DNA of 64,000 bases from Thermoanaerobaculia bacterium (GTDB lineage Bacteria > Acidobacteriota > Thermoanaerobaculia > UBA5066): assembly GCA_963816185.1 (NCBI GenBank), contig CAWFJJ010000024.1:384001-448000 (forward strand), given 5' to 3'. The translations under genes were made by a program, and so were the position numbers. The first letter of the stretch is position 1, and each line of letters begins with the position of its first letter. A model generated the notes under the pieces. That model did not search any database, was not told the origin of the DNA, and saw only the letters and a program-made list of their open reading frames with translations. Positions 27,743 through 49,469 of this stretch are shown here, piece after piece.

Positions 27743-29536
27743 ATGTTGACGAGTCTCCGCGTCCGCGACCTCGCAGTCCTCGAGGACGTCGAGGTGGCGT
27801 TCGGCGAAGGCCTCACCGTCCTGACGGGAGAGACGGGAGCCGGCAAGTCGCTCGTCGTGGACGCCGTGATGCTGCTTGCCGGAGGGCGGGCTGATCCCGC
27901 GCTCGTGAGGGCCGGGTCCGAGAGACTCGTCGTCGAGGGCGCGTTCGACTGCGACGACGCCGAGGCGCGGCGCGCTCTCGTCGAGGCGGGTCTCCTCGAG
28001 GATGGAGGCACGGGCTCTTTCGAGGTCGTCGTGCGGCGCGAGGTCGCCGCGGGCGGCAAGGGGCGGCTCCTCGTGAACGGCTCTCCGGCGGCCCTGAGGA
28101 CTCTGCAGGAGATCGCGCCGCGTCTTCTCGTGCTCTACGGGCAGGCGGAGGCGCGCGACCTCCTCGATCCCGACGCGCCTCGCCACCTTCTGGATCGGTT
28201 CGCGGGCCTCGGAGAAGGGGCGGCAGCCGCGGCCGATCGCTTTCGCGAGTTCGTCGGCGCCGAGCGCGATCTCGCGCGCCTCCACGAGGCGGCCCGGGAC
28301 CGCGTTCAAAGGCTCGAGCTGCTCGAATTCCAGATTGCCGAGATCGACGGGGTGGGGCCGAAAGAGGGAGAAGACGAGGAGATTTCTTCTGAAAGGAAGA
28401 GACTGGCCAGCGTCGAGAAAGTGGGCCAGCTTCTCGCAACGGCGACGAGCGCGCTGGAATCCGACGAGAGCGGCGCGATCCCTGCGGCTTCGGCTGCCCG
28501 CCGAGCTCTTCAGCAACTCGAAGAAATCTCCTCCTCGTACACCACCCGGAGCGCCGCCCTCGCCGAGGCGATCGAGCGGCTCAAAGAGGTTGCGTTCGAG
28601 ACCTCCCGCGACCTCGGGAGTCTCGAGGCGGATCCCGCGCGTGCCGCGTTCGTGGCCGAAAGGCTCGACGCCCTCGCGAAGCTGAAGAGAAAATACGGCG
28701 CGACGCTCGCCGAGGTCCTCGAACGGCGCGCGTCGCTCGGCCGGGAGCGCGACGAGCTTCTCGATCTCGAAGGCGCGGTGAAGAAGGCCGAAGGTGCGTC
28801 GGAAAAGGCCTTCTCCTCCTATCGCCGCGCCGCGCTCGAGCTGTCGGCCGGCCGCGAGGCGGCCGCGCCGCGCCTCGGGCGCGCCGTGGAAGAGCACCTT
28901 CGAGACCTCGCGTTCCTCAAATCGTCGTTCTCGGTTCTCGTGACGCGCCGCGAGGAGGAAGGGAGTCGTTTCGCGGCGGGAGGCAGCCGCGTCTCCTTCG
29001 GGACGCACGGCATCGACCAGGTGGCATTCGCCTTCGCACCGAACCCCGGAGAGCCGGCGCGGCCTCTCCAGAAGATCGCCTCGGGCGGGGAGCTCTCCCG
29101 CGTCCAGCTCGCGCTGGCGGCCGCGCTTGCGGCCGAGGAGTCGGAGTCCGAGGCAAAGCCTGCAACGAGGCGCCGCGGCGGCCCCGTCCGGACCTTCGTC
29201 TTCGACGAGGTGGACGCGGGCGTCTCGGGCGCGACGGCGGAAGCCGTCGGCCGGAAGCTGCGCGGCCTCGCGGCGAAAGAGCAGATCCTCGTCGTCACGC
29301 ATCTCGCACAAGTCGCAGCGGCCGGCGACTGCCACCTTTCGGTCTCGAAGGAGGCGGCCAAGGGCCGGACGCGGACGCGCGTGGAGGCGCTCGACGGGGC
29401 CGGGCGGGTCGAGGCGATCGCCGCCCTTCTCGCTGGGGCGTCCGTCGGGGAAGCGGCGCGGGCCCAGGCGCGGCAGCTCCTCTCCGCGTTCACCCCAGGC
29501 GGGCGCCGTCCACGACTTTCCAGCCGCTCTTCTTGA
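27743..29536 (+). CDS. recN: DNA repair protein RecN
   Basis: LTGETGAGKS, IASGGELSR, FDEVDAGVSG, VTHLAQVA. Confidence 0.96.
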   Translation: MLTSLRVRDLAVLEDVEVAFGEGLTVLTGETGAGKSLVVDAVMLLAGGRADPALVRAGSERLVVEGAFDCDDAEARRALVEAGLLEDGGTGSFEVVVRREVAAGGKGRLLVNGSPAALRTLQEIAPRLLVLYGQAEARDLLDPDAPRHLLDRFAGLGEGAAAAADRFREFVGAERDLARLHEAARDRVQRLELLEFQIAEIDGVGPKEGEDEEISSERKRLASVEKVGQLLATATSALESDESGAIPAASAARRALQQLEEISSSYTTRSAALAEAIERLKEVAFETSRDLGSLEADPARAAFVAERLDALAKLKRKYGATLAEVLERRASLGRERDELLDLEGAVKKAEGASEKAFSSYRRAALELSAGREAAAPRLGRAVEEHLRDLAFLKSSFSVLVTRREEEGSRFAAGGSRVSFGTHGIDQVAFAFAPNPGEPARPLQKIASGGELSRVQLALAAALAAEESESEAKPATRRRGGPVRTFVFDEVDAGVSGATAEAVGRKLRGLAAKEQILVVTHLAQVAAAGDCHLSVSKEAAKGRTRTRVEALDGAGRVEAIAALLAGASVGEAARAQARQLLSAFTPGGRRPRLSSRSS

Positions 29537-29641
29537 ACGTGATTCTCAGATGTAAGGCGCGCGCGAAGAAACCCCAGTATTTCCCTGTCTCACGCCGTCG
29601 AAATCGTTTAGATCCATAGATTTGGGACATTTCAACGTATC

Positions 29642-29650
29642 TGTGGAAAA
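29642..29650 (-). promoter_or_regulatory. DnaA-box consensus match (TTTTCCACA) in an AT-richer intergenic region
   Basis: TGTGGAAAA on the + strand fits TTWTNCACA. Confidence 0.4.
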
Positions 29651-29776
29651 GCCTGTGTGTTGCGGTCGAAAAAGGGGCCCGAAGCGGCATTTTTGCTTGG
29701 GTTTTTCCGCCTCGCACATAGCTCTGTGCACCGGGCCGATTCGGGCTCGCCGGCGCTTTGATATCGTTCGATTTCG

Positions 29777-30334
29777 ATGACGATCCGTTCTTATCGCGGC
29801 CTCATGCCCCGGCTCGGCTCGGGCGTGTTCATCGCGGAGACAGCGGCCGTCATCGGAGACGTCGTCCTGGGCGACGACGTGTCGATCTGGTACTCGGCGG
29901 TCGTTCGTGGCGATTGCTGCTCGATAAGAATCGGCGCGCGGTCGAACGTGCAGGATAATTGTTCGCTCCACGTGACGAAGAGGACCGGGCCTCTCACTCT
30001 GGAGGAGGAGGTCACGCTCGGACACAACGCCGTCGTGCACGCGTGCACGGTCCGCCGTGGAGCTCTCATCGGCATGAACGCGACGGTTCTCGACAATGCC
30101 GATGTCGGCGCGAGCGCCCTCGTCGCCGCCGGCGCGGTCGTCCTGAACGGCACGGTGATCCCGCCCGCCACGCTCTGGGCCGGCAATCCCGCGAGGCACC
30201 GGCGCGACCTCACGCCCGACGAGGTCGAGAGCCTCAAGACCTACTGGCAGAACTACCTCGAGTACAAGACCGATTACCTCGACAGCGAGGCGAAGGGCCG
30301 GGCGGACATGAACACGGCCCTTCGCCGCGCGTGA
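29777..30334 (+). CDS. Gamma carbonic anhydrase family protein (YrdA-like)
   Basis: VIGDV.LG, SIW..AVVRGD, NVQDN..LH, GH.AVVHAC hexapeptide repeats. Confidence 0.92.
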   Translation: MTIRSYRGLMPRLGSGVFIAETAAVIGDVVLGDDVSIWYSAVVRGDCCSIRIGARSNVQDNCSLHVTKRTGPLTLEEEVTLGHNAVVHACTVRRGALIGMNATVLDNADVGASALVAAGAVVLNGTVIPPATLWAGNPARHRRDLTPDEVESLKTYWQNYLEYKTDYLDSEAKGRADMNTALRRA

Positions 30335-30359
30335 CGCCCACGGCCCGCGAGGGCCCGCG

Positions 30360-31622
30360 ATGATCGCGAGCGTCAAGGGGACGCGCGACCTCCTCCCGCC
30401 CGAGACGCGCGTGTGGAACCGCGTCGAGGCGGCTGCGCGCGAGGTCTTCGCGCTCTACGGCTTCGACGAGATCCGGACGCCGACGCTGGAGTCCACGGAG
30501 CTCTTCGTGCGGAGCGTGGGGGAGTCGACGGACATCGTCCACAAAGAGATGTACACGTTCACCGACCGCGGCGGCCGTTCCGTGACGCTGCGCCCCGAGA
30601 ACACGGCGGGAGTCGCGCGCGCCTACGTCGAGCACACGCTTGCGCAGGCAGGGCGGCCCTGGAAGCTGTACTACATCGGGCCGCAGTTCCGGTACGAGCG
30701 CCCTCAGAAGGGCCGCTATCGCGAGTTCCGGCAGATCGGAGCCGAGATTCTCGGCCCCTCGGACGCCGCGACGGACGCCGAGCTGCTCGTCATGCTCTTC
30801 GACTTCCTCGGGCGGCTCGGGTTCATGGGACTTTCTGTTTCGCTCAATTCGGTGGGGACGGAAGTCGAGAGACCAGGGTTCATCCAGGCGCTGCGCGCCT
30901 GGTTTTCTTCGAAGGAGAATTTGCTGGACGAGGACGACCGGCGACGCCTCGCGGAGAATCCCCTGCGCATCCTCGACTCGAAAAATCAGCGCCTTGCTGA
31001 ATGGCTCGCCGATCCCTCGCTGCCGCGCATGGTCGATTACCTTTCGAAGGAATCTTCCGAACATCACACGATGCTTCTCGGCTTTCTCGACGCAGCTCGC
31101 ATCCCCTATCGGATGGATCCTCTTCTGGTCCGTGGCCTCGACTACTACACGCGCACCGTTTTCGAGGTCACGGCAGCCGGCCTCGGAGCGCAGGACGCGA
31201 TCCTCGGCGGGGGCCGCTACGACAAGCTCGTCTCCGACCTCGGGGGACCGAGGACCGCCGGGATCGGCTTCGCCATCGGGACGGATCGTCTCGTCGGCAT
31301 CCTGCCCGAGGCGTTCCGCTCGGCGGCGATCGAGGCCGTTCGGCCTGTCGTGCTGATCCCGCTCGAGCGCGCCGACGTGGCGGAGGCTCTCTCCCTCGCG
31401 AAGGACCTTCGGAAGGAGGGGATTCCCGTCGACCTCGTCACGGCCGCGAAAGGACCGGGGCACGGCCTGAAGGTGGCCGAGAAAACGGGGGCCGTCCTCG
31501 CCGTTCTTCTCGGGCAGAAGGAGCGCGAAGGGGGAGTCGTGAACGTCAAGGATCTCGCGCGGCGGACGCAGGAGGCGCTCCCGCGGCTCGGCCTCGCGGC
31601 CGCTCTGCGCGCGCGTCTGTAA
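30360..31622 (+). CDS. hisS: Histidine--tRNA ligase
   Basis: KGTRDLLP, KEMYTF, LRPENTA, FRYERPQKGRYREF.Q, LVRGLDYY, GGGRYD. Confidence 0.97.
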   Translation: MIASVKGTRDLLPPETRVWNRVEAAAREVFALYGFDEIRTPTLESTELFVRSVGESTDIVHKEMYTFTDRGGRSVTLRPENTAGVARAYVEHTLAQAGRPWKLYYIGPQFRYERPQKGRYREFRQIGAEILGPSDAATDAELLVMLFDFLGRLGFMGLSVSLNSVGTEVERPGFIQALRAWFSSKENLLDEDDRRRLAENPLRILDSKNQRLAEWLADPSLPRMVDYLSKESSEHHTMLLGFLDAARIPYRMDPLLVRGLDYYTRTVFEVTAAGLGAQDAILGGGRYDKLVSDLGGPRTAGIGFAIGTDRLVGILPEAFRSAAIEAVRPVVLIPLERADVAEALSLAKDLRKEGIPVDLVTAAKGPGHGLKVAEKTGAVLAVLLGQKEREGGVVNVKDLARRTQEALPRLGLAAALRARL

Positions 31623-31633
31623 GATCCGCCACC

Positions 31634-33400
31634 ATGTCCTCAGTCGCACGCACCCCCGCCGGAACGCTCCGCAAGGCCGACGTCGGGCGGACCGTTCGCC
31701 TCCAGGGGTGGGTAAACCGCCGCCGCGACCACGGCGAGCTCGTGTTCATCGACCTGCGCGACCGCTCCGGGATCGCCCAGGTCGTGTTCGACGCCCGGTT
31801 CGTGCCGGCGCCCGATCTGCTCGAAAAAGCCAAGGAGCTTCGAAACGAGTTCGTCCTCGACGTGACAGGTACCGTCGTCGAGCGTGAGGGACTCAGCGTC
31901 AACCGCGAGCTCCCGACGGGTGAGATCGAGGTCCGCGCGACGGCGCTCTCGATCCTGAATCGGGCCGACACGCCGCCCTTCCCGATCGAGGACGGCATCA
32001 AGGCGTCGGAGGACTTGCGCCTCACGTATCGCTATCTCGACCTCAGGCGTCCCGAGATGACGAAGAAGTTCATGACGCGGAGCGCCGTGACGATGGCGAT
32101 CCGCGAGGTGATGCACGCCGAGGGTTTTCTCGACGTGGAGACGCCCATCCTCACGAAGTCGACGCCCGAAGGCGCGCGCGACTTCCTCGTCCCGTCGCGG
32201 ATTCACGAGGGCGAGTTCTACGCCCTCCCGCAGTCGCCGCAGCTCTTCAAGCAGCTCCTGATGGTCTCGGGGATGGAGCGTTACTACCAGATCGCCCGCT
32301 GCTTCCGCGACGAGGACCTCCGGGCCGACCGCCAGCCCGAGTTCACGCAGGTGGACATCGAGATGTCGTTTCCGAGCGAGGAGGCCGTCTTCACCCTCGT
32401 CGAGAGGATCTTCACGAAGGTGTTCCCCGCGTGGGGGATTCCGTGCGAGGCGCCTTTTCGGCGGATGACGTACGACGAGGCGATGGAGCGCTTCGGCATC
32501 GACCGGCCGGACACGCGCTTCGCCCTCGAGCTCGGAACGATATTGCGGCGCTTCGAAGAGAACCTTTCTTCGAAGGTGGAGAGAGTGAAGGGCCTGTGCG
32601 TGCCGGGAGGCGCGTCGTTTTCGCGCAAGCGCCTCGACGATCTCGAAAAGGGCGCGCGGGCGGCGGGCGTCGAGTGGTTCTTCTGGGTGAAGACGGCCGC
32701 CGCGGGAAGCTGGAATTCCAATTCGAAGAAAATCTTCAGCGACGCTTCGGTCGAGAAGATGCGTGCCGAGTTCGGCGCGGGAGATGGCGATCTCGTTCTT
32801 CTCGCGGCAGGGAAGGCCAAGTCCGTCTTCGACTTCCTCGGCGCCCTCCGCGTCCAGATCGCGCGCGAGGAGAAGCTCGTCCCTGAGGGGCGCTACGACT
32901 TCCTCTGGGTGACCGGGTTCCCGCTTCTCGAGTGGCACGAGGAGGACGCCCGCTGGTATTCGATGCACCATCCGTTCACGTCGCCGCGAGATGAGGACCT
33001 GCCGTTTCTCGAATCGGACCCCGGCCGCGTGAAGGCGCGCGCTTACGACGTCGTCTTGAACGGCATGGAGCTCGGCGGCGGGTCCGTCCGAATCCACCGG
33101 CCCGACGTGCAATCCCGCGTCTTCGAGCGGCTCGGCATCGGCCCCGAAGAAGCGCGCGCGAAGTTCGGATTCCTCCTCGATGCGTTTCGATTCGGCGCGC
33201 CGCCGCACGGGGGGATCGCGCTCGGCCTCGACCGCATCCTCATGATCCTGACGGGCTCGTCCTCGATTCGCGACGTCATCGCGTTCCCGAAGACCGCCTC
33301 CGGGTCGGATCTCATGACGCAGTGCCCGAACCCCGTGTCGCCCGAGCAGCTCGCCGAGCTGCACATCGCGCTCGCGAAGCCGCCGAAGTCCGAGGGCTGA
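31634..33400 (+). CDS. aspS: Aspartate--tRNA ligase
   Basis: RRDHG..FIDLRD, STPEGARDFLVPSR, LPQSPQLFKQ, FRDEDLRADRQPEFTQ, GAPPHGGIALGLDR. Confidence 0.97.
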   Translation: MSSVARTPAGTLRKADVGRTVRLQGWVNRRRDHGELVFIDLRDRSGIAQVVFDARFVPAPDLLEKAKELRNEFVLDVTGTVVEREGLSVNRELPTGEIEVRATALSILNRADTPPFPIEDGIKASEDLRLTYRYLDLRRPEMTKKFMTRSAVTMAIREVMHAEGFLDVETPILTKSTPEGARDFLVPSRIHEGEFYALPQSPQLFKQLLMVSGMERYYQIARCFRDEDLRADRQPEFTQVDIEMSFPSEEAVFTLVERIFTKVFPAWGIPCEAPFRRMTYDEAMERFGIDRPDTRFALELGTILRRFEENLSSKVERVKGLCVPGGASFSRKRLDDLEKGARAAGVEWFFWVKTAAAGSWNSNSKKIFSDASVEKMRAEFGAGDGDLVLLAAGKAKSVFDFLGALRVQIAREEKLVPEGRYDFLWVTGFPLLEWHEEDARWYSMHHPFTSPRDEDLPFLESDPGRVKARAYDVVLNGMELGGGSVRIHRPDVQSRVFERLGIGPEEARAKFGFLLDAFRFGAPPHGGIALGLDRILMILTGSSSIRDVIAFPKTASGSDLMTQCPNPVSPEQLAELHIALAKPPKSEG

Positions 33401-33471
33401 AGAGAATATTTCTTGTCTAAGAAGAGAAAAGAGAAGAGAAGATTTTCTTAGAAGGGGGAGAGGGGAAGGGC

Positions 33472-34614
33472 ATGCGATTGCGGAAAGCCCGGCATCTCTC
33501 CTCCTTTTCGTTTGTCGCGGGGGGCGTCCGCACGGACGTCGTCGTTGGGCCAGGCGCGCTGCGCGGCCTCGACGCGCGCCTCGGCCGCATCGCGCCGGGT
33601 CGCTGGTTTCTCATCTCTTCTAAGAAGGTCTTTCTCCTGCATGGCCACTTGCTGTCATCTGGAGGCGTTGAGCGGGTCCTCGATCCGAAGCCCCTCCTCG
33701 TCCCCGACGGCGAGGCCGCCAAGACCTGGGACGTCCTCGGGCGCCTCCTCGAAGAGCTCGCCCGGCGCGGGCTTCGGCGGGACGGTGGCATCGTCGCGCT
33801 CGGGGGCGGAACGGTGGGGGACGTCGCGGGCTTCGCGGCGGCGCTCGCTCTGCGCGGGGTGCCCGTCGTCCAGGCTCCCACGACGCTGCTCGCGGCCACC
33901 GACAGCGCCCTCGGCGGCAAGACCGCCGTGGATCTTCCTTCCGGAAAGAACCTCGCGGGCGCATTCCATGCGGCCCGCCTCATCGTCGTCGACACGTCCA
34001 CGCTCGAGACTCTTCCGCTTCGCGCGTATCGCTCCGGCCTTGCGGAGGTCGTGAAGACCTCGATGCTCGACGCGGGATTCCATCGTGCGATGGCGCGTCT
34101 CCTGGCGCCTCTCTCCTCCCGCGAACCGGTCGCCGTCTCCGAGGCCGTGCGCCGGTCTCTGGCCGTCAAGGCGCGCTCCGTGGCGCGCGATCCGTTCGAA
34201 CGGACCGGAGAGAGGGCGGCCCTGAACCTCGGACATACCGTGGGTCACGCCCTCGAGACGGCGTCCGGGCATCGCCTCGAGCATGGGGAGGCTGTCGCCT
34301 GGGGGCTGCTCGCGGCCTTGCGCCTTTCGGTTACGCGAGCGGGGCTCTCGACGCGGATGGCCGAAGCCCTCGCCGGGCGAGTTCTCCGCCTCGTGCAGCC
34401 GCCCGGGCCCTCGGTCGCAGCGTTGCGCGGGGTCCGGGCGCTTCTTCGCTCCGACAAGAAAGCCGACCGGCTCGGCCTCAAGGCGGTCGTCCTCGCGAGG
34501 CCCGGTCGGGCCATGCTCGTGAGCGCCGACGCGTCCGAGCTCATGGAGGCGTTCGAGGCCGTTCTTGCGCGGTACAATAGCGTTGGATGGGTGTTGCCCG
34601 GGTTCCGCGCCTGA
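33472..34614 (+). CDS. aroB: 3-dehydroquinate synthase
   Basis: PDGEAAK, ALGGGTVGDVAGF, PTTLLA..DSALGGKT, LNLGHTVGHALE, HGEAV. Confidence 0.92.
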   Translation: MRLRKARHLSSFSFVAGGVRTDVVVGPGALRGLDARLGRIAPGRWFLISSKKVFLLHGHLLSSGGVERVLDPKPLLVPDGEAAKTWDVLGRLLEELARRGLRRDGGIVALGGGTVGDVAGFAAALALRGVPVVQAPTTLLAATDSALGGKTAVDLPSGKNLAGAFHAARLIVVDTSTLETLPLRAYRSGLAEVVKTSMLDAGFHRAMARLLAPLSSREPVAVSEAVRRSLAVKARSVARDPFERTGERAALNLGHTVGHALETASGHRLEHGEAVAWGLLAALRLSVTRAGLSTRMAEALAGRVLRLVQPPGPSVAALRGVRALLRSDKKADRLGLKAVVLARPGRAMLVSADASELMEAFEAVLARYNSVGWVLPGFRA

Positions 34615-37114: not shown

Positions 37115-37461
37115 GGTTCGCAGATGCGCTCGAAGACCTTCTGGACGCTCCGGGCGCCTTGGGCGCCGCCTTCATCGATCCGCAGGGCGAGGTCATCGCA
37201 CGCGTGGGTGCCAAGAGCGCGACGGAAGTTCTCGGCGCCTACCAGTCCGTCTGGCTGGGTGAGCTCCGCCGCGCGGCCGAGCGCTCGGGCCTCGGCGAGA
37301 TTTCCAATCTCTCGTTCCGGTTCGCGAACCGACGGATTCTCACGAGTCACGTGAAAGCGGGCTACTTCGTCCTCGTCGTCTTCGACGAAGGCGGCCAGCC
37401 GCACGCGGCGCGCCCGCGGCTCGACGAGGCCGGCGCGCGTCTCGTCTCCGAGATCTCGTGA
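37111..37461 (+). CDS. Roadblock/LC7 domain protein
   Basis: L..L...PGALGAAFID..GEVI and GYFVLVVF. 116 aa. Confidence 0.75.
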   Translation: MRFADALEDLLDAPGALGAAFIDPQGEVIARVGAKSATEVLGAYQSVWLGELRRAAERSGLGEISNLSFRFANRRILTSHVKAGYFVLVVFDEGGQPHAARPRLDEAGARLVSEIS

Positions 37462-37490
37462 GCCGCGCGTCCTGCTAGTCTCGGAGGTCG

Positions 37491-40224: not shown

Positions 40225-41466
40225 CGGCAGACGGCCTCCCGCGGGGCGCAACCGGTGCGCCCGGCGCGTACGTCCACGTGCCTTTCTGCGCGCATCGCTG
40301 CGCGTACTGCTCGTTCGTCGCGCTCGAGGGGAGAAGAGAAGAAGAAGATTTCTTCGAAGGCCTGGAGAGGGAAATTCGCGCGAGGGCGGGCGAGGCCGTG
40401 CGTGGCGCCGCCCGCGCGATTCGCGGTTTTGATTCCGTTTACTTCGGCGGCGGCACCCCTTCGTACGTCGACGCGCGTCGGCTCGGCCGCCTGCTCGGGA
40501 CCTTCGAAGAAATCTTCGGATCTCTCTTCGGACGTCGAAATCACGGCCGAGGCCAACCCGGACGACCTCGACGCGGACAAGCTTTCCGCTCTTTCGTCGA
40601 TCGGCGTGAACCGCCTTTCCATCGGTGTGCAGTCGCTCGTGGACGCGGAGCTTCTTCCGCTCGAGCGGCGGCACGATGCCGCCGCCGCGCGCCGCGCCGT
40701 GTCGGAGGCCGCACGCGCTTTCGGGAACGTCTCGGCCGACCTGATGATCGGCATTCCGGGGCAGACGAAGGAGACTCTGCTTGCGAGCGTCGACGGGCTC
40801 CTCGAAGCTGGCGTGACGCACCTTTCCGCCTATCTTCTCGAGATCGAGAAGGCGCCGAAGCTCGTGGCGCTGAAGAAGGAGCGGCCGGAGCTCTTCGCCG
40901 GCGACGACGAAATGGCGGACGGGTGGGAAGCCGTGGACGAGCGCGTGACGGCGGCCGGCCTGCAACGCTACGAGATGTCGAACTGGGCGAAGCCGGGCTT
41001 CGAGAGCCGGCACAACCTCAAGTACTGGACGCTCGTCCCCGTCCTGGGCTTCGGCGTCGCGGCACATTCGTTCGACGGCATGAAGCGGTACGCGAACACG
41101 GGGATGCTGGCCGAATACCTCCGGCGCACGCGAGAAGGCGTCTCGCCCGTCGCGACCTCCGAAGAGCACCAGGAAGATCTTCTTAGAAGGGAAGAGGGGC
41201 CTGCGTTCGGCCGGAGCCTTATGAGCAAGGTCCCCGCTGGCCACGATCTTCCCAGAAGGAAAGAGGAACTCATGCTGGGGCTTCGGCTCGCATGCGGCGT
41301 CCCCTCTTCCTCATTCGAAGAAATTTGCAGAACCTTGCCCAGAGCATCGGCCTCACGGATGGAGGACGCGCTCTTCGCCGGACTCCTCGAAAAACACTCT
41401 GGCTGCGTCCGCTTCACGCGCCGCGGCGTGATGTTGTCGAACGAGGTGTTTTCGCTCCTCGTCTAG
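40221..41466 (+). CDS. hemW: Radical SAM heme chaperone HemW (HemN-like), split by a +1 frameshift near 40518 (probable sequencing error)
   Basis: YVHVPFCAHRCAYCSF and YFGGGTPS in the first frame. EITAEANP, RLSIGVQS, YEMSNWA, HNLKYW in the second frame. Confidence 0.88.
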
Positions 41467-41483
41467 CGGCGTTTCGCCGAACG

Positions 41484-42893
41484 TCATGTCGCCCTCTTCC
41501 TCCGGAACAGGAAGAACGCCGGGATGCCGAGGGCCACGATGACGAGGCCGCGCACGGTGAACGTCGGCTTGAAGATCACGAGGGCGATCGTCACGTAGAC
41601 GGTCGCGATGACGTAGAGGACGGGGATGACGCGGTCTCCGAGGGAGCGCGGCGCGAGGGCGGGATTCGTCCGTGCGAGCTTCCAGCGTCCGACGATCGTC
41701 GCGATGTAGAACATCAGGACCGTCGGAATGACGTAGTCCAGGAGGTCGCTGTACTTGCCCGAGAGGCACAGAAGAGCGGACCAGAGAAACTGCGCGGCGA
41801 GGGCGTTCACCGGGATCATCGTCTTCGGCGCGACCTCGCCGAAGGCCGGCAGGAAGAGGCCGTCGCGGGACATGGCATAGAGCACGCGCGAGCCGGACAG
41901 GATGAGGCCGTTGAGACAGCCGAACGTCGAGACGAGGATCACGCAGGCCATGATGAGCGCCGGCGTGCCGGTCTCCGCCGTACCGGAGACCGCGCCGATG
42001 GCGGCCGTGGCGACGCGGTCCTCGGGAGCGCCCGCGATGCCGGAGAGAGGGAGCGCGCTCAGGTATCCCACGTTCGCGAGGACGTAGAGGAGCGTCACGA
42101 GCCCGGTCCCGTACACGAGGGCTCTCGGGACGTTCGTCTCGGCGTCGCGCACCTCCTCTCCGAGGAACGTCACGTTGTTCCACGCGTCGGCCGAAAACAG
42201 AGATCCCACGGTCGCGACGGCGAAAGCCCAGAGGAGGGGAATCTTGAGGTCCCCTGCCGCGGGAAGCGCCCAGGAGACTCCCATGAGGTTTCCGCCGGCG
42301 ATGAAGCACACCGACAGGAGGCCGATGAGCGAGAGCACCTTGGCCGTCGTGAAGACGTTCTGCAGCCGCGCGCCGTTCTGGACGCTCGTCGTGTTCCACC
42401 AGGTGAGAAACGCGACCAGGAGAATCGCGATGATCTCCAGGGGCGTGATGCTGAGATACGCGGCCTTGAAGAAGACGTGCTTGCTCGAGATGGCCGGGAT
42501 GAGCACGCCGAGGTATTTCGCGAAGGCGACGGCCACGGCCGCGATCGTGCCCGTCTGGATGACGAGGAGGGCCGCCCAGCCGTAAAGAAATCCGCCGAGG
42601 TCGCCCCACGCCTCGCGCAGGTAGACGTACTGCCCGCCGGCTTTCGGGAAGGCCATGGCGAGCTTCCCGTAGCTCCAGGCGCCGGCCACCGTGACGAGCG
42701 CCGTGAAGACCCAGACGAGGAGGAGGAGGCTCGCGCTCTTGACCTGCCGCGCGATGTCGGCCGAGGTGATGAAGATGCCGGAGCCGATCATCGACCCCGC
42801 GACGATCGTCGTCGCGTCGACGAGGCCGAGCCTCCTGGGAAGCGTTTTGGGGAACGCCGGCTGCGTCGAGCCCGACTTCGTCATCGTTCCCAC
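41484..42893 (-). CDS. APC family amino acid permease
   Basis: GSMIGSGIF, P.AGGQYVYLREAWG, EEVRD...NVPRAL, SRVLYAMSRDG. Confidence 0.92.
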   Translation of the reverse strand: MGTMTKSGSTQPAFPKTLPRRLGLVDATTIVAGSMIGSGIFITSADIARQVKSASLLLLVWVFTALVTVAGAWSYGKLAMAFPKAGGQYVYLREAWGDLGGFLYGWAALLVIQTGTIAAVAVAFAKYLGVLIPAISSKHVFFKAAYLSITPLEIIAILLVAFLTWWNTTSVQNGARLQNVFTTAKVLSLIGLLSVCFIAGGNLMGVSWALPAAGDLKIPLLWAFAVATVGSLFSADAWNNVTFLGEEVRDAETNVPRALVYGTGLVTLLYVLANVGYLSALPLSGIAGAPEDRVATAAIGAVSGTAETGTPALIMACVILVSTFGCLNGLILSGSRVLYAMSRDGLFLPAFGEVAPKTMIPVNALAAQFLWSALLCLSGKYSDLLDYVIPTVLMFYIATIVGRWKLARTNPALAPRSLGDRVIPVLYVIATVYVTIALVIFKPTFTVRGLVIVALGIPAFFLFRRKRAT

Positions 42894-43016
42894 GGGTCCC
42901 TCCTCAGGACTCGGTCGGGGAGATCGTCATGCGCGGGAGGCTCAGGAAGGCAACGTCCCCGGTGTGACCGGGGACGTCGAGGCTCGCGGAAAAGGAGGGC
43001 GCTCGGGATCTCAAGC

Positions 43017-43466
43017 TCAGGGTGCCGCCGGCCCGGCCGGGTTGACCCAGTCCATGACGATGCCGATGTTCACTTTTTTGTCGCCGCTCCCGCTGTTCCG
43101 GACGACGTCCATGAGTTTCATCGCGTCGTCGTACTTGACGGAATCCTCGGCCGAGAAGAAGACGACCTTCGAGCTGCGGTTCCGCAGGATTTCCTGGAGG
43201 CGGACCGCGATGTTCGCCGGGTCGACCTTCTCCTTGTTCAGGTAGTACTCCCGGTTCGCGGTGAGCGACACGATGATCTGGTCCGTCGGCGGCGGAGTGT
43301 TCGGCGGCGTCGCGGGCGCGTTCGGAGGGACCTGCACGTCGTAGCCGCGCTGCAGCAGCGGCTGGACGACCATGAAGATGATGAGAAGGACGAGAACGAC
43401 GTCCACAAGCGGGGTGACGTTGATCTCCGACTTGGGTCCGTCCCCGCTTCCGACTCCCATGCTCAT
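43017..43466 (-). CDS. exbD: ExbD/TolR family protein (copy 2)
   Basis: EINVTPLVDVVLVLLIIFMV. Confidence 0.9.
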   Translation of the reverse strand: MSMGVGSGDGPKSEINVTPLVDVVLVLLIIFMVVQPLLQRGYDVQVPPNAPATPPNTPPPTDQIIVSLTANREYYLNKEKVDPANIAVRLQEILRNRSSKVVFFSAEDSVKYDDAMKLMDVVRNSGSGDKKVNIGIVMDWVNPAGPAAP

Positions 43467-43477
43467 GGCTTGACTCC

Positions 43478-43900
43478 TTACTTGCTGTCCGGTTTCTTCT
43501 CGGTGATGAGGCCGACGCGCTCGAACCCGCCGTCTTTGATCATCCTCATGACGCTCTTGACGTCGCCGAAGTTCAGCGTCCGGTCGGCCTTGATGAGGAT
43601 GTCCTTGTTCGCCGAACGTTCTCCGATCTCTTTCATCTTCGCTTCGAAGTCCTTCGGGGGAAACCACTTCGTGTCGATGAAGATGGTTTTGTCGGACTGC
43701 ACGGAGACGATGAGCTCCTTGTCGGACTCGGGCTTCTTGTCGGGCCGGTCGGTCTGGGGGAGCGTCACGGCCTTGCCCTTCTGGAGCATCGGCGTCACGA
43801 CCATGAAAATGATGAGAAGGACGAGACACACGTCGACGAGCGGCGTCACGTTGATGTCGCTCTTCATGCTCTGGCGGCCGCCGTACTGATCCATGCCCAT
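43478..43900 (-). CDS. exbD: ExbD/TolR family protein (copy 1)
   Basis: DINVTPLVDVCLVLLIIFMV, IKAD. Confidence 0.9.
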   Translation of the reverse strand: MGMDQYGGRQSMKSDINVTPLVDVCLVLLIIFMVVTPMLQKGKAVTLPQTDRPDKKPESDKELIVSVQSDKTIFIDTKWFPPKDFEAKMKEIGERSANKDILIKADRTLNFGDVKSVMRMIKDGGFERVGLITEKKPDSK

Positions 43901-43940
43901 GGGTGAACTCCTCGCTACCGAGACGAAAGGACGTCGGTCC

Positions 43941-44621
43941 TCACGCGGCCTTCGCCGCCTGGCGCTTCATGAAGTAATCGATGAGCTCGGAGGACGAGTT
44001 CGACATCTCGACCTGGAAGCGCTCGATCTTGTTGAGGAACAAGTTGTAGAGCCACACCGCCGGAATGGCGACGAAGAGGCCGAGAGCGGTCGTGACGAGT
44101 GCTTCCGCGATGCCGGCCGACACGGACCCGAGGCCGCCGGCGCCGGACGCGGCCATGCCCCGGAAGGCGTTGATGATGCCGATGACGGTGCCGAGAAGGC
44201 CGATGAACGGCGCCGTCGTCGCGATCGTGGCGAGACCGCCGAGGCCCTTCTTGAGGTCCGCCGTGGTCATCATGGAAGCGCGTTCGATCGCGCGCTCCGC
44301 GGCTGCGACGGTGTCGTGCCCCTGTGCGCCCGCGCCGTGCGCCTCGTAGGCGAACTCCAGGAGCCCCGCGGACACGACCTTCGCCACGTGGCTGTTCTTG
44401 TATTTCTTGGCGAGGTCGATCGCCTCCCTGAGCTTGTCCTGCTTCAGGAGCTGGCCAACCTCGAGGGCGAACTTGACCGACTGCGTCTTCGCCTTCTGGA
44501 AGGTCAGCCACCGCTCGACCGACACGGCGAGCGAGTAGACGGAAAGCAGGCAGAGCAGGATGAAGATCGCCATTGCAGGCGGCGACATCGTCTTGATCAG
44601 CCCCATCAGACTCATATCCAT
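43941..44621 (-). CDS. exbB: MotA/TolQ/ExbB proton channel
   Basis: APFIGLLGTVIGII.AF, GIAEALVTTALGLFVAIPAV. Confidence 0.92.
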   Translation of the reverse strand: MDMSLMGLIKTMSPPAMAIFILLCLLSVYSLAVSVERWLTFQKAKTQSVKFALEVGQLLKQDKLREAIDLAKKYKNSHVAKVVSAGLLEFAYEAHGAGAQGHDTVAAAERAIERASMMTTADLKKGLGGLATIATTAPFIGLLGTVIGIINAFRGMAASGAGGLGSVSAGIAEALVTTALGLFVAIPAVWLYNLFLNKIERFQVEMSNSSSELIDYFMKRQAAKAA

Positions 44622-44701
44622 TTGAAATGTCCTCCTTGCGTTACCGAGCGGAGCTCGTGATTTCTCGCGTTTCTATTCTATTTCGAGGGGCCTCCGCCGC
44701 C

Positions 44702-45436
44702 TTACTGGAGCGTAAAGGTGACGGTGACCGTCAGATAGACCGGAACCGGCCGTCCGTTGAAAGTGGCCGGCTTGTATTTCCATTGCGAGACCGCGCGAAT
44801 CGCCGCGCTGTCGAGGAGCGGGTTCAGACCCCGGAGCACGCGGACGGACTCGACGTCGCCAGTTTTCGTGATGATGGCCTCGAGGATGCAGACGCCCTGC
44901 ATCCGGGCCTTGCGGGCCGCCTCGGGATACGACGGCTTCACGCGCGAGATCTCGATCGGCTCCTTGACCTCGCCGCCGACGCGGAGAGGCTCTTCCCCGA
45001 CCCCGCCGAGCATTCCGCCTTTGACGCCCCCGAGGACGCCGCCCATGACGCCGCCCGCGACGCCTCCCTCGACTCCGCCTTCCACGCCGCCTTCCACGCC
45101 GGTGTTCTCAGGCTCCGGGGCGCTCGTCGGCGGCGGAAGCGTATCCGGAACGACGACGGGCGATGTCACTTGGGACGGCTTGACGGGCTCGACCTTCTGC
45201 GTCGGCTTCACGGCTGCGGCCTTCGGGGGTGGCGGCGGGGGCGGCGGCGGGGGAGCCTGCTGGGAATAGAACTGCACCGGGATCGGCGGCTCGGGAATGT
45301 CCTCGATGAACCACATCGAGGCGCCGACCGCGGTCCCGATGACGATCACGTGGATGAGCACCGAGAGCGGCAGCGTGTACCAGCGCTGGGCGCTACCCTT
45401 GTGCTTCCCGGATTCGATGAGCGAGGCTTCGAACAT
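44702..45436 (-). CDS. tonB: Energy transducer TonB
   Basis: S..IH TM motif, Pro-rich linker, GGVEGGV repeats, YPEAARKAR.QG, W.YKPA. Confidence 0.9.
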   Translation of the reverse strand: MFEASLIESGKHKGSAQRWYTLPLSVLIHVIVIGTAVGASMWFIEDIPEPPIPVQFYSQQAPPPPPPPPPPKAAAVKPTQKVEPVKPSQVTSPVVVPDTLPPPTSAPEPENTGVEGGVEGGVEGGVAGGVMGGVLGGVKGGMLGGVGEEPLRVGGEVKEPIEISRVKPSYPEAARKARMQGVCILEAIITKTGDVESVRVLRGLNPLLDSAAIRAVSQWKYKPATFNGRPVPVYLTVTVTFTLQ

Positions 45437-45454
45437 GCGTGCTCTCCTGGCTCC

Positions 45455-46351
45455 CTACATCGCCTCGAGCGGATTCTTCTTGGCCTGCTCGACGCGCTGC
45501 TTCTCCTGGATCTTCTTCCTGATCTCGAGCGCCTTCTGCTGCCATTCGGTCGCCTTCGCGTTCAGCTCCGCGACTTTCGCGGGGTCCGATTCGATGCGCG
45601 CGTACTGCCGGTAGAGCAGGTTCTTGTAGAGCATGGCCTCGAAATAGTCCGGGTTGAGCTGGATCGCCCTGTCGAGCTGAGCCATGCCGAAATCGAGGAT
45701 CTCCTTCCGCTTCTCGGGCGTCAGGCCCTTGTCGGGGGAGATGTCGACGCCCACGGTGTTGTAGGACTTGTCCCACGCCGTGACGCCCATCGTGTAGAAG
45801 ACCTCGGCGTTGTTCGGCTCCATCTCGCCTCGTTTCTTCTGCCACAGGATGGAGTTCTCGTAATCGCCCTGCTTTGCGTAGAGCATCGCGATCGTCTGAA
45901 CGGCCTGCGAATCCTGGGGGTGCTTCTCCAGGAGCTCCTTGAAGTACTTGATCGCCTCGTCGTACTTCTGGGCGTTCATGTACGTCGTGACGAGGAAGCG
46001 CGCGGCCTTCTCGTCATCGGGCTTGGCGGCGAGGTATTTCTTGAAGTGCTCGATCGACCGGTTCAGGGCCTCGATGTCTTTCGGGTGCGTGGAGCCGGGG
46101 TTATAGAGGGCCATGTAGCCCATCGCGACGAACTTGTCGAGGCGAACTTCGGTGGGATCGAGGGCCTGGGCCGCTTCGTACTTCTTCAGGGCGTCTTCGT
46201 AGAGCTGCTCCTTGAAGTACGCGTTTCCCTCCCGGATGAGCTGTTTGCTCTTGAACTTGTCGCAGCCCGCGACGGAGAGCGACAGCACGGCGAGACCGGC
46301 CGCGGCGATTCGCCGGACCGTTCGTCCCCTGCCGGTCAGATTTCCCGTCAT
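45455..46351 (-). CDS. TPR lipoprotein upstream of tonB
   Basis: Lipobox VAGC, TPR helices, AAGGAG RBS. Confidence 0.8.
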   Translation of the reverse strand: MTGNLTGRGRTVRRIAAAGLAVLSLSVAGCDKFKSKQLIREGNAYFKEQLYEDALKKYEAAQALDPTEVRLDKFVAMGYMALYNPGSTHPKDIEALNRSIEHFKKYLAAKPDDEKAARFLVTTYMNAQKYDEAIKYFKELLEKHPQDSQAVQTIAMLYAKQGDYENSILWQKKRGEMEPNNAEVFYTMGVTAWDKSYNTVGVDISPDKGLTPEKRKEILDFGMAQLDRAIQLNPDYFEAMLYKNLLYRQYARIESDPAKVAELNAKATEWQQKALEIRKKIQEKQRVEQAKKNPLEAM

Positions 46352-46428
46352 CGCCCGTTCACTCCTTTCGGTCTCACGCCGCCTCGCGTTCGTCTCACGC
46401 CGCTCCCTTGGACCGCCTGGCAACGCAT

Positions 46429-47007
46429 CTAGTTCCCGTGCGGCCTGACGACTCCCCCCGAAACGACGAGCTTGATCCCCTCCTCCACCGTGAGGCGGGG
46501 GTCGAGAATATCGCTTTCCTTCGCGAATATCAGGAAACCGCTCGTCGGGTTCAGCGCGGTCGGAACGTAGATCGAAAGCGTGCTCGCGTCGAGTGAGCCG
46601 ATTCCGCTTCCCGTCACGAATCCCAACGCAAAGGTCCCTTTCTGAGGAAATTCGACAAGAACGACTCGCTGGAAGGCACGACGGCCGCCCGGCGACACAG
46701 CCTCGACCAGTTGCTTCGAGGCGGTATAGACCGTCTTGACGAGGGGGAGATTCTCCAAGAGGCGGCCGAAAAGTTCAAGGACTTTCTTCCCGATGAGATT
46801 CGAGGAGAGAAGGCCGGTCAGCCAGATGACGACGATCGTGAGAATGAGCCCCAGGCCAGGGATGGCCCGGCCCACGAGGCGCTCGGCCAGGGGCTGGCTG
46901 AAGCCGTCGATCACGTTGAAGACGAAGCGGATGACGACCGCGGTCACGACGAGCGGAACGAGCACGAGAAGCCCGGCAGTGAGGTGGCGACGGACCCGGA
47001 AAGGCAT
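46429..47007 (-). CDS. DUF502 family membrane protein
   Basis: GLLVLVPL..T, PLVKTVY, VVLVEFP, YVPTALNPTSG, VSGG. Confidence 0.9.
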   Translation of the reverse strand: MPFRVRRHLTAGLLVLVPLVVTAVVIRFVFNVIDGFSQPLAERLVGRAIPGLGLILTIVVIWLTGLLSSNLIGKKVLELFGRLLENLPLVKTVYTASKQLVEAVSPGGRRAFQRVVLVEFPQKGTFALGFVTGSGIGSLDASTLSIYVPTALNPTSGFLIFAKESDILDPRLTVEEGIKLVVSGGVVRPHGN

Positions 47008-47047
47008 CGGAGCGGGATTCTATCCGTGCGCCCCTTACAATCCGGTC

Positions 47048-48771
47048 ATGTCGATTCGCCCCTCTTCTCTCCTTCGGGTCTCGCTCCTCCTCTTCGTCGC
47101 CGCGCTCGTCGGGCCGTCCGCCCCGTCCCAGGTTCCGACCGGCAAGCCCGAGACGCCGGCGGGAGGATTCGTCGCCCGCGAGGCGATCACCGTGACGAGC
47201 CTCGACGTCGTCGTGACCGACTCGAAGGGAAATCGGGTCACGGGCCTGAAGAAAGAGGATTTCGTCGTCGTCGAGGACAACCTCGAGCAGACGATCACGA
47301 ACTTCTCTCCGGTGGAGCAGGGCCGATTCGTCCTGCCCGCCGAGGAGACTCCGCCGGCGCCCGCGCCGCTGCTCCGGCTCCCACCCCGGCCCCGGCACCC
47401 GAGAAGACGCTCAGGACGCGGATCGTCATCTTCGTGGACAACCTTCACCTCTCGCCGGGTGACCGGAACCGCGTCCTGAGAAGCGTCGAGACCTTCGTCC
47501 GCGAGAACGTCAAGGGCAACGTCGAGGGCATGATCGTCGCCTGGAACCGGTCGTTGAAGATCCGGAGAAAGTTCACGAACGACGGCCGCGACCTGTCCGA
47601 CGTCCTCAGGCAGCTCGAGGACGAGAGCGCTCTCGGTCAGCAGGCCATCTCCGACCGGCGGGACGTGATCCAGGCGATCGACGACTCGACGAGCGCGGAC
47701 CAGGCGGAGGGCCGCGTGCGGTCGTACTGCCAGTCGCTAGACAACGACCTGAACTTCACGATCGACGCGATGAAGACGACGATCAACCAGCTCGCCGGCG
47801 TCGAAGGCCGCAAGATCCTCATCCACGTGTCCGGCGGCCTGCCGCAGTCCCCGGGGGCGGAGCTGTGGAAATACGTCTCCGACAAGTACAGCGGTGCCGC
47901 GACCCAGGGCATGTCGCAGTTCGAGTTCGATCGGACCACGAAGTACCTTTCCGTCGTGCAGGCGGCGAACGCCTCGGGCGTGTCGATCTACACGATCGAC
48001 GCGTCGGGCCTCACGGTGGATTCGAACATCTCGGCCGAGAACCGCACCACGTCCCAGCGCCTCGACACGTTCACCGAGAAGAACAACCTCCAGTCGATGC
48101 TCAGCCTCATGGCCGAGGAGACGGGCGGTGAGGCCATCCTGAACAAGAACGACGTCATCGGCGCCCTCAAGAACATCGAGAAGGACTACACGTCGTATTA
48201 CTGGATCGGCTACCGAAGTCTCAGGACCGGGCTCGACCGCCCGCACAAGGTCGAGGTCAAGGTGAAGAAGAAGGGCCTGATCGTGCGCGCGCGCCGCAGC
48301 TATCTCGAGAAGGGCATCGAGACGAAGGTGCGCGAGGCCGTCACCTCGGCGCTGTTCTTCCCCCGCGACGACAATCCCCTTGCGGTTGGCCTCGAAATCG
48401 GCAAGCCCGTGCCGGCCGACCGCGAGAACTTCGCGGTCCCGGTGGAAATCCGGATTCCCTACTCGCGCCTTGCCATGCTGCCGGAGGGCTCGAAGGTGCG
48501 CGGCCGCGTCGTCTTCTACTTCGTCGTCATCGATTCGTCGGAAAAGCAGTCGGAGCTCACGACGCAGCCCGTCCCGATCGACGTCGATGCGAAGAAATTC
48601 GACGCCCTCGCCCGCAAGGACTTCATCTACGACGTGAAGCTCATCATGATTCCCGGCGGCCAGAAGCTCTCGATCGCGGTTCGCGACGACATCACGAACC
48701 AAACGAGCTATATCCAGAGGTCCATCTTCGTCTCGGCCTTCTCCGGCGAGGAAGCCGCACCCCGGAAGTGA
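47048..48771 (+). CDS. Acidobacterial VWFA-related secreted protein, split by a 1-base frameshift near 47365 (probable sequencing error)
   Basis: LDVVVTD.KG..VTGL...DF.V.ED in the first frame. IVIFVD, GRKILI.VS.G, MAEETGG, YYWIGY, RARRSY in the second frame. Confidence 0.82.
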
Positions 48772-49469
48772 GGCCAAGCCAGGCCGTGAACGCACCGGTC
48801 AAGCGCTTCGTTCTGTTCGCGCGCGAGCCCGTACGAGGACGCGTGAAGACACGCCTCGCCCGCGAGATCGGGGCCGATGCCGCCGCGTCGCTCTACGAAG
48901 CGTTCCTTTCCGACCTGGCCGCCTCGCTGACGGCGCCTGAACGGTGGGAAGCGGTGCTCGCGCACGCGGAGCCGGAGGCGGGGCCGTTCCTCAGAAAGAC
49001 GTTTCCCGATCCGTGGTCACTCGTCCCGCAGGGCGACGGGTGTCTCGGAGAGCGTCTGTTTCACGCCTTCGGGAGAGGCCGAGATGGGGACGACGTCCTC
49101 GTCGCGGGAAGCGACGCCCCGACGCTTTCCCGCGCGAACCTCGAGGCCGCATTCCGGGCTCTACGGGAGGGCGCGGACGTCGTCTTCGCCCCCGCGCCGG
49201 ACGGTGGGTTCTCGCTCGTGGGTCGACGCGGCGACTCGGGTGCCGGGGATTTCTTCGAAGGTGTTCGATGGTCCACCGCCTACGCGCTCGAGGATTGCCG
49301 GAGCGCCGCGGAGGTACGCGGGTTCCGGGTCCGGCTCGTCGAAGAAATCTCCGACGTCGACACGAGCGCGGACCTCGAGGCTCTGGAGGCGGCCCTCGCG
49401 GCCGACCCGGATCTCGCCCCCGCGACGCGCCGGGCGCTCCTCGCGCTGTTCGGGCGGAGCGTCGGGTGA
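48768..49469 (+). CDS. TIGR04282/DUF2064 family glycosyltransferase-like protein
   Basis: FAREP..GRVKTRLA, Q..G.LGERL, GSDAP, PAPDGG, DVDT..DL. Confidence 0.88.
   Translation: MRPSQAVNAPVKRFVLFAREPVRGRVKTRLAREIGADAAASLYEAFLSDLAASLTAPERWEAVLAHAEPEAGPFLRKTFPDPWSLVPQGDGCLGERLFHAFGRGRDGDDVLVAGSDAPTLSRANLEAAFRALREGADVVFAPAPDGGFSLVGRRGDSGAGDFFEGVRWSTAYALEDCRSAAEVRGFRVRLVEEISDVDTSADLEALEAALAADPDLAPATRRALLALFGRSVG

Follow-up and report, generated by a model that had tools for sequence, protein, structure and literature searches.

Why would a bacterium write the same short word again and again inside its genes, essential ones included, and write it two copies at a time, face to face? This is the question raised by a 64-kb stretch of DNA from an uncultured bacterium of the Thermoanaerobaculia (contig CAWFJJ010000024.1 of assembly GCA_963816185.1, positions 384,001 to 448,000), the whole of which we call the window. 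A sequence-only reading of the window, made by a model, had spotted a motif recurring in ten facing pairs, picked by eye, and proposed that each pair is a higher-order unit: either a protein-bridged loop or wrap of DNA, or a long-range pairing within messenger RNA. Our answer is that the pair, not the single site, is maintained by selection across related species. Copies of the word follow a pairing rule, the pairs are conserved, their arms are under selection, the arms arose in place by point substitution and partners that are lost are replaced. The data are the 64-kb window and loci of 17-21 kb covering the same region in five relatives, L001 to L005, which are not independent samples.

The word can be found without knowing what to look for. 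Prior-free counting returned the same AT-rich words as the top over-represented 10- and 11-mers of the window, the GC content of which is 64-70%. The 12-mer TTTCTTMGAAGG, one mismatch being allowed, occurs 17 times in the window where shuffles predict 0.46, a roughly 37-fold excess attained by none of 100 shuffles, and the 17-mer GAAGATTTCTTCGAAGG occurs 10 times with up to three mismatches against 0.24 expected. A position weight matrix, trained on the window's own sites, describes a purine-rich flank, commonly GAAGA, followed by TTTCTT, a variable base M, GAAGG and then G-rich bases; the word can also be written as a GA-rich flank, GAT(T)TTCTT-M-GAAGG and G-rich bases. Most coding copies have C as base M, whereas those in alr and between genes have A. 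With a cut-off score of at least 14, the matrix finds 27 sites, 16 on the + strand and 11 on the - strand. The word is asymmetric, and hence not a perfect palindrome like the highly iterated palindrome HIP1. TTCGAA by itself is not enriched in the window (58 occurrences, 61 expected), which excludes a restriction-site effect. One odd variant, TTCTTCTGAAAGG, is found in two unrelated arms (recN + and rarA -), the partners of which do not have it.

The copies face each other. Among neighbouring sites 40-200 bp apart, ten run + then -, none runs - then +, two are ++ (both in alr) and none is --. In all, 20 of the 27 sites fall into ten convergent pairs and none into a divergent one, a result attained in 0 of 20,000 random placements and 0 of 20,000 strand shuffles. 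Chance and selection by eye are ruled out by these randomisations and by the over-representation of the word, and the convergent polarity reported from the sequence alone is indeed non-random in the window. The trained matrix is not needed to see it: the plain consensus with up to two mismatches gives nine convergent pairs among 32 matches. Two cases of - then +, only 14-15 bp apart (32550/32565 and 61360/61374), are overlaps produced by the word's internal near-palindromes. We recovered all ten of the pairs listed originally and added an eleventh, in rarA; the second arm in the TIGR04282-family gene is weak (score 9.9). The perfect 17-bp inverted repeat reported in hemW is there too, with GAAGATTTCTTCGAAGG at 40344-40360 on the + strand and its exact reverse complement at 40501-40517. 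The arms and additional copies, with matrix scores, are as follows.

8810..8821, + strand: intergenic arm, core TTTCTTAGAATG, score 28.1, between folE and a DUF4097 gene, both genes on the - strand.
8884..8895, - strand: its intergenic partner, core CTTCTTAGAAGG, score 27.0, 74 bp from 8810; the arms pair in the minimum free energy (MFE) fold of the RNA.
16102..16113, + strand: extra copy in alr, NFLEGE, score 30.4.
16249..16260, + strand: extra copy in alr, RIFLEGV, score 24.7; 18 nt, 94% complementary to the arm at 16422-16439.
16327..16338, + strand: + arm of the alr pair, RIFLEGL, using a rare TTA codon, score 34.1.
16428..16439, - strand: - arm of the alr pair, score 35.9, 101 bp from 16327.
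27684..27695, + strand: unpaired copy in the purine-rich pepA-recN spacer, 47 nt upstream of the recN start, score 36.4.
28383..28394, + strand: recN + arm, variant TTTCTTCTGAAA, score 26.1; 17/17 bases identical in L001-L004.
28515..28526, - strand: recN - arm, score 25.4; spacing 132 bp in the window and L001-L004.
30904..30915, + strand: hisS + arm, native residues WFSSKEN, score 23.4.
31041..31052, - strand: hisS - arm, score 26.0, in the window and L001 only; the L004 - arm is at window-equivalent 31105-31116.
32565..32576, + strand: aspS + arm in the GAD domain region, score 30.7; an adjoining near-copy on the - strand lies at 32550-32561, score 21.3.
32720..32731, - strand: aspS - arm, score 27.6, spacing 155 bp; the sole pair also in L005 (149 bp).
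33444..33455, + strand: + arm in the aroB leader, score 35.7, 17 nt upstream of the ATG at 33472.
33616..33627, - strand: - arm inside aroB, score 29.4; spacing 172 bp in the window and L001, 178 in L002, 134 in L003 and L004.
40344..40360 (matrix site 40349), + strand: hemW + arm, perfect 17-mer, EDFFEG, score 32.0.
40501..40517, - strand: hemW - arm, perfect 17-mer, TFEEIF, score 24.5; the pair encloses the conserved FGGGTPS.
41179..41190, + strand: new + arm at the hemW 3' end, score 30.9, on a stretch of about 69 bp found in none of the five relatives.
41248..41259, + strand: older + arm at the hemW 3' end, decayed in the window (10.3), good in L001-L004 (spacing 64 bp).
41312..41323, - strand: - arm at the hemW 3' end, score 23.3.
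49250..49261, + strand: + arm in the TIGR04282-family gene, GDFFEG, score 21.3.
49336..49347, - strand: weak - arm in the TIGR04282-family gene, score 9.9, 86 bp away; forms a 15-bp stem with 49250 in the RNA fold.
50941..50952, + strand: unpaired copy near the 3' end of a YjeF-type (Nnr) gene, score 21.8.
61287..61298, + strand: intergenic + arm, 45 nt past the carD stop, score 32.9.
61360..61371, - strand: intergenic - arm, 73 bp away, score 24.2, overlapping a local palindrome at 61358-61387.
63576..63587, + strand: weak + arm in rarA, score 19.8.
63659..63670, - strand: weak - arm in rarA, score 21.5, variant TTCTTCTGAAAGG, the same as in the recN + arm.

There is about one pair per 5-6 kb of window, and most of the pairs are within common housekeeping genes. 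Eight of the 11 lie wholly in coding sequence (alr, recN, hisS, aspS, two in hemW, the TIGR04282-family gene and rarA), one straddles the aroB leader and gene start, and two are intergenic, between folE and the DUF4097 gene and after carD. Spacings run from 73 to 172 bp in the window and from 64 to 266 bp when the relatives are included. The suggestion that they group near 75-100 and 135-175 bp did not hold up, the gap between 101 and 132 bp being insignificant (P=0.32). Nor did we find the 10.5-bp periodicity that the original reading had proposed looking for: Rayleigh tests gave P=0.82 for the 11 window spacings and P=0.99 for 19 distinct spacings, and the best period within 9.5-12 bp has P=0.038, uncorrected for the roughly 25 periods tried. 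Seven of the 11 spacings equal 2 modulo 3. By hand reckoning, that proportion is expected if each arm can use two reading frames, so a shared codon phase of both arms is not a special rule.

Are the pairs older than this one genome? In the genome collection, the window's nearest relatives belong to uncultured Thermoanaerobaculia (Acidobacteriota), the best of them 83% identical in AroB. Our five share its gene order for about 21-43 kb (70-87% DNA identity), L001-L004 being 76-87% identical to the window and L005 more distant (AroB 67% identical); the motif-bearing genes compared are + strand genes. Pairs lie at orthologous places in L001-L004. The recN pair keeps its 132 bp in all four and both hemW pairs are present in all four; the aspS pair is spaced at 155 bp in the close relatives, with L001 lacking the + arm; the aroB pair comes in the three spacings listed above; and the hisS pair is found in L001 and, in altered form, in L004. 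L005 retains the aspS pair only. The word is present in relatives at 73-83% AroB identity and nearly absent at 67%, and the exact core, found 10 times in 80.7 kb of L001-L004, is absent from 1.21 Mb of 76 other loci. An assembly artefact is ruled out by the same pairs appearing in four independent assemblies with different contig naming styles.

The arms are held against the grain of the genes they sit in. GC content at third codon positions is 0.51 within arms and 0.86 elsewhere in the same genes. Across five genomes, A/T third-codon positions are invariant at 16 of 30 positions in arms as against 30 of 516 outside (P=2.8e-11), so selection acts on the nucleotides as such; by arm, the counts are 11/14 for + and 5/16 for -. 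The word is conserved beyond neutral expectation, as HIP1 is. Partners also come and go. In hisS, the - arm of L004 (score 27.5) lies 64 nt farther along the gene, at a place that is free of the motif in the window, and a hisS - arm was made by at least five substitutions in one lineage. At the 3' end of hemW, the window has a new + arm, on its own stretch of about 69 bp, and its ancestral + arm has decayed; L001-L004 keep the ancestral one intact. Since lost partners are replaced nearby, it is the pair that is the selected unit. The earlier proposal of a higher-order unit is backed on all these counts: non-random orientation and spacing, orthologous retention, selection at synonymous sites and replacement of lost arms.

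The arms are made of native coding sequence. The stretches bounded by the aspS and hisS pairs are colinear with known structures, AspRS residues ~308-363 with 1efw and HisRS residues ~181-231 with 1htt. The first hemW pair encloses FGGGTPS in all six genomes, and its arm residues, EDFFEG and TFEEIF, are common to all five relatives; in L005, the EFFEG peptide is encoded with G-ending codons. It follows from the colinearity and native residues that the arms were built in place by point substitution, and at some cost, in rare codons (TTA in alr) and amino-acid changes (hisS - arm). Three frames are used in reading the + arms (FFEG/FLEG, SSK, LLRR) and two in reading the - arms (FEEI, SKK); the word thus cannot be put down to a peptide, and a protein-level motif is ruled out. 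An origin by insertion is likewise ruled out, by the native residues, by colinear AspRS and HisRS and by the interiors of the ten pairs, which are unrelated native sequence (judged by eye on the printed sequences, without alignment or similarity score). At aspS, hisS and the first hemW pair, we found no insertion absent from orthologues of the Rickettsia palindromic element (RPE) type, and among the copies no homologous interior as in miniature inverted-repeat transposable elements (MITEs).

What, then, reads the pairs? One clue is that partners are no more alike than strangers. Core identity is 9.7/12 between partners and 9.19/12 between non-partners (P=0.11), and outer-flank identity of partners is unremarkable (P=0.47). 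The longest shared run does give a signal between partners (P=0.006), which vanishes within the A-type (P=0.16) and C-type (P=0.875) classes. Each arm, in other words, matches the common word rather than its own partner, which suggests a shared reader acting in trans, and the occurrence of the word on both strands suggests that duplex DNA is what is read. Local inverted duplication or template switching between partners is unsupported, as they have nothing in common beyond the consensus.

Our tentative preference, held at rather less than even confidence, is for one common factor that recognises the arms individually on duplex DNA and brings the two facing copies together. Each arm would be a separate instance of one clade-specific recognition word, read by a trans-acting factor, most likely a sequence-specific protein. 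Two copies, with their GAAGG ends pointing inward, would be used jointly as one two-fold symmetric unit, and the factor would either bridge the 60-270 bp between them or coat the stretch inward from both ends. The + copy, on the sense strand, would be the stronger, primary site and the - copy a weaker, auxiliary one. That the reader is a protein, acts on DNA and joins both arms is our inference; for its cellular role we can only guess, at a part in structuring the chromosome locally or in restraining transcription as it runs through these genes.

Several observations weigh against this. No binding protein is evident among the 94 open reading frames (ORFs) of the window in Pfam scans. The sequence-only reading had called for a genome search for histone-fold or other nucleoid proteins; in this set of window ORFs, nothing histone-like turned up. 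We considered ORF 61395-62219 and the DUF4097 protein, whose genes adjoin intergenic pairs, as readers and rejected both, as they have signal-peptide-like N-termini by eye and match no Pfam DNA-binding family. The spacings show no helical phasing (Rayleigh P=0.82 and 0.99), and orthologous pairs differ by 6 bp (172 against 178 in aroB, 155 against 149 in aspS). A stiff loop shorter than 200 bp should not tolerate such shifts, so a flexible bridge or a coating must be assumed. Nor are the arms equal: of the exact cores in the window, 8 lie on + and 2 on -, and the relatives have 9 on + and 1 on -; + arms are the better conserved at A/T third positions, by the counts given above; and the four strong copies that have no partner are without exception sense-strand ones. 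An inequality that follows the direction of the gene is not what one would predict from a purely symmetric DNA complex. This asymmetry is not decisive, because uptake sequences, which act as duplex DNA, are also orientation-biased within genes (PMC2346458). Any + arm can also pair with any - arm as RNA, at about -20 kcal/mol, and the matrix was trained on a window that, with the five loci, is the whole basis of the analysis.

An explanation that is possible and nearly as likely as a reader at the level of DNA is a long-range helix in messenger RNA. Here, the sense copy (GAUUUCUUMGAAGG, with its purine-rich flanks) would be an RNA element, for instance a nuclease entry or protein-binding site, and the downstream complement would mask it. 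The fixed order, element then mask, would serve as a co-transcriptional timer. Every pair lies within a single transcription unit; the sense arm is both better conserved and nearer consensus, and the extra and unpaired copies are all sense. No helical phasing is required. The mean duplex energy of the pairs is -22.5 kcal/mol, and the arms pair in the MFE folds of 8795-8910, 16312-16454 and 49235-49362 (z from -1.9 to -2.7). Pairing extends beyond the consensus in hemW (24 nt, 88%), alr (18 nt, 94%) and recN (17 nt, 94%). At position M of the hemW arms, the series C/C in the window, T/C in L001 and L003 and T/T in L004 reads as a compensatory path via a U.G pair.

Against an RNA helix stands the missing complementarity specific to each pair beyond the consensus. 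Uncompensated changes are common: at position M of aspS, the - arms of the six genomes have C, G, A, A, G, C, with C in the + arm throughout, and changes in the aroB - arm are uncompensated in the + arm. Arm-to-arm mismatches over 372 core positions show no wobble bias toward the sense strand, 26 being compatible with sense pairing and 20 with antisense, with 47 transversions. Sense and antisense duplex energies are alike (P=0.29 in the window; P=0.07 for all, which are not independent). The rarA pair is poorly complementary, at only -11.7 kcal/mol, and for 61272-61386 and 63561-63685 the folds do not surpass those of shuffled sequence. Rfam returned only a tRNA at gathering score and nothing convincing over the arms at E up to 5; the sole row overlapping an arm was a snoRNA model at 28370-28421, with E=4. 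Of the two mechanisms offered by the sequence-only reading, the DNA loop or wrap and long-range mRNA pairing, both remain leading candidates, the simple RNA helix being weakened by the absence of pair-specific complementarity.

A general role as promoter or terminator we rejected, as the scans for both add nothing general. There are no sigma-70-like sites within 26-42 kb, and of 16 terminator-like sites (10.5 expected) only those at the hisS + arm and the hemW - arm coincide with arms. At 30884-30912, the hisS + arm lies directly 3' of an 8-bp GC-rich hairpin; the hairpin plus TTTTCTT resembles an intragenic intrinsic terminator, which the other arms are without.

An unlikely alternative is that the word propagates itself, as a DNA uptake signal or a target of biased repair or conversion, accumulating by molecular drive wherever the protein tolerates it. 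Its strong excess within and between genes, in-place point changes, orthologous conservation, clade limit and orientation bias all recall the uptake signal sequences (USS) of Pasteurellaceae and DNA uptake sequences (DUS) of Neisseria (PMC2346458). The five or more substitutions behind the hisS - arm suit drive or templated conversion, and the genome-maintenance genes recN and rarA bear pairs. The trouble is the partner: we know of no uptake signal that requires a facing copy 60-270 bp away, whereas of the 27 sites here 20 have a partner, and a partner that is lost is replaced. Known inverted pairs of uptake signals are intergenic hairpins, proposed to be terminators (PMC2346458). The distribution here is patchy, with no sites in some 14.5 kb of - strand genes by our own tally; no competence genes were seen in the window, and literature searches on competence in this class found nothing.

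Still less probable is a master invertase, for which each pair would bound an invertible segment, an intragenic inverton, that reversibly switches off or recodes its gene in a subpopulation. Strictly inverted repeats of one word flanking segments within genes are what one enzyme with many sites would give, and intragenic invertons with repeats of about 11 nt are on record, one of them truncating thiC (10.1101/2023.03.11.532203). Both frame errors found in the window, described below, lie in or beside a pair, as mixed read orientations might cause. The inverted form stays open in four of nine cases tested, which weighs little because open antisense frames are common at the 67% GC taken for the genome. 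Inversion would wreck conserved parts of the essential hisS and aspS and the FGGGTPS of hemW; no orthologous segment is inverted in the five relatives (colinear alignments, which give the majority state only); spacings of as little as 64 bp leave very little DNA for synapsis; and no recombinase was found among the 94 ORFs scanned against Pfam. That the pairs are relics of MITE-like mobile elements inserted in frame, as Rickettsia palindromic elements are, is scarcely credible: the size is typical (85-200 bp including arms) and in-frame insertions do occur in hemW (114 bp in L002, about 69 in L001, about 69 at the gene's 3' end in the window), but interiors are unrelated, the AspRS and HisRS stretches align to structures without insertion, the hemW pair encloses a core motif conserved in all relatives, and the information in the matrix fades gradually on both sides with no sharp element end.

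Several observations around the pairs deserve a record of their own. Those hemW insertions differ in look. In L001 (17382-17470), the roughly 69 extra in-frame bases place another + copy 75 bp past the first; the 10 nt upstream are identical in both, which looks like a tandem duplication that has since diverged. In L002 (16900-17075), the 114-bp in-frame insertion lies between the arms and holds two hairpin-forming inverted repeats, one with arms of about 23 nt that flank a GC-rich centre, the other a perfect 9-bp stem. This insertion has the appearance of a small palindromic element in coding sequence. In the window itself, hemW has one extra base at 40518-40522 (GGATCTC, where all five relatives have GG-TCTC or its equivalent), which, within a few bases 3' of the - arm, moves the gene from the frame of 40221 into that of 40255. 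Over about 14 kb, no other isolated indel breaks the frame relative to all four close relatives. It could be a sequencing error or mark a recent pseudogene; our systematic survey of frame errors covered 27.7-41.5 kb. The other frame error, a +1 change in a run of CGCGCGCGCGGG at 16350-16385, lies inside the alr pair at 16327/16428, so that positions 2-185 of Ala_racemase_N are in frame 15791-16369 and the rest, with the C-terminal domain, in frame 16344-16961.

Among the intergenic regions inspected, only the pepA-recN (27640-27742) and aspS-aroB (33401-33471) spacers have a sense strand in which the surroundings of the motif are extremely purine-rich. A small local hairpin, TTTCTT-GTCT-AAGAAG, is also present in the aroB leader (33409-33424), and a five-codon ORF (ATG GCA GCC GCC GAA TAG) lies immediately upstream of recN. 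Further afield, the stretch 2371-7864 has lower GC (0.64), many AT-rich patches and large ORFs with no Pfam match; it adjoins an Ig-like (ASH/HYDIN-type) protein and a weak Hcp-like match, and may be acquired DNA or a secretion-related island. The - strand genes at 41487-47019 and 53489-59482 make up the 14.5 kb or so with no site scoring 14 or more, as against about 0.6 sites per kb in + strand genes. Gene type (many encode membrane proteins), chance, or the direction of transcription or replication could account for this.

Over-represented genomic words under selection, such as uptake signals, HIP1, Chi and the FtsK-orienting polar sequences (KOPS), are few, and each has revealed some chromosome biology. 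To our knowledge, HIP1 is still unexplained after decades. It is a possibility, one we hold a little more loosely than our preference above, that this lineage has its own factor that reads a 12- to 17-bp word and works only on two facing copies 60-270 bp apart, set about every 5-6 kb, essential genes included. If the factor acts on DNA, the pairs would amount to a bacterial chromatin element of a new kind; if on RNA, to identical long-range clamps within coding sequence, forming a family that spans the genome. The finding also shows that coding sequences of uncultured soil bacteria bear strong constraints that have nothing to do with protein and that codon-based analyses would misread. The word could serve as bait for its reader, its clade boundary allows phylogenetic profiling for the responsible gene, and synonymous mutations could separate the word from the complementarity.

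How does all this compare with what is known? Text searches of the literature with 11-mer motif strings gave only unrelated primer-type matches among the matches listed, searches on Thermoanaerobaculia with inverted repeats produced no relevant paper, and nothing similar came from Rfam or from the literature searches. Looping operators of the lac and gal type combine a primary site with a weaker auxiliary one up to a few hundred base pairs away, which may be in coding sequence, and serve one or a few loci per regulator, near promoters and helically phased. The unequal arms described here recall this, but they lie mid-gene, are unphased and recur at about one pair per 5-6 kb. The elements known as REP (repetitive extragenic palindromic), BIME (bacterial interspersed mosaic element) and REPIN (REP doublet forming hairpins) are also short common sequences in inverted doublets on transcripts; our three pairs that fall wholly or partly outside coding sequence (8810-8895, 61287-61371 and the pair with its + arm at 33444) are similar to them in size. 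REP-type elements lie outside genes and have an interior of their own, whereas eight of our 11 pairs are wholly coding and surround native, unrelated interiors; no transposase of the REP-associated (RAYT) type was found among the 94 ORFs scanned against Pfam. Intragenic invertons share inverted repeats flanking tens to hundreds of base pairs within genes (10.1101/2023.03.11.532203); those described there have no one word across loci, whereas here there is one word, flipping would ruin essential enzymes and no orthologue is flipped.

The closest known kinds are HIP1 and uptake sequences. USS and DUS are 10-12 bp long, in many-fold excess, found in coding regions, clade-specific and biased in orientation, with intergenic inverted repeats capable of forming hairpins (PMC2346458). 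Our word shares the many-fold excess at a similar length (17 against 0.46 expected), in and between genes and on both strands (16 + and 11 -). USS and DUS work singly, whereas here the partner is obligatory, distant and inside the gene. The strong one-strand skew of Chi and KOPS is not seen in the window, where the two strands carry those 16 and 11 sites and the sites face each other. HIP1 (GCGATCGC, in cyanobacteria) is a hyper-abundant word in and between genes, conserved beyond neutral expectation and thus maintained by selection, of unknown function and with a proposed link to chromosome structure; neither a peptide nor an RNA role was found for it (PMC5861425). The likeness is that of an abundant, clade-limited word under selection, genic and intergenic alike. 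HIP1, however, is an 8-bp perfect palindrome, linked to DNA methylases, that occurs as single sites with kilobase-scale periodicity, whereas ours is an asymmetric 12- to 17-mer in facing pairs. What is new relative to HIP1, uptake signals, Chi and KOPS is the obligatory, distant, facing partner inside conserved genes, replaced when it is lost.

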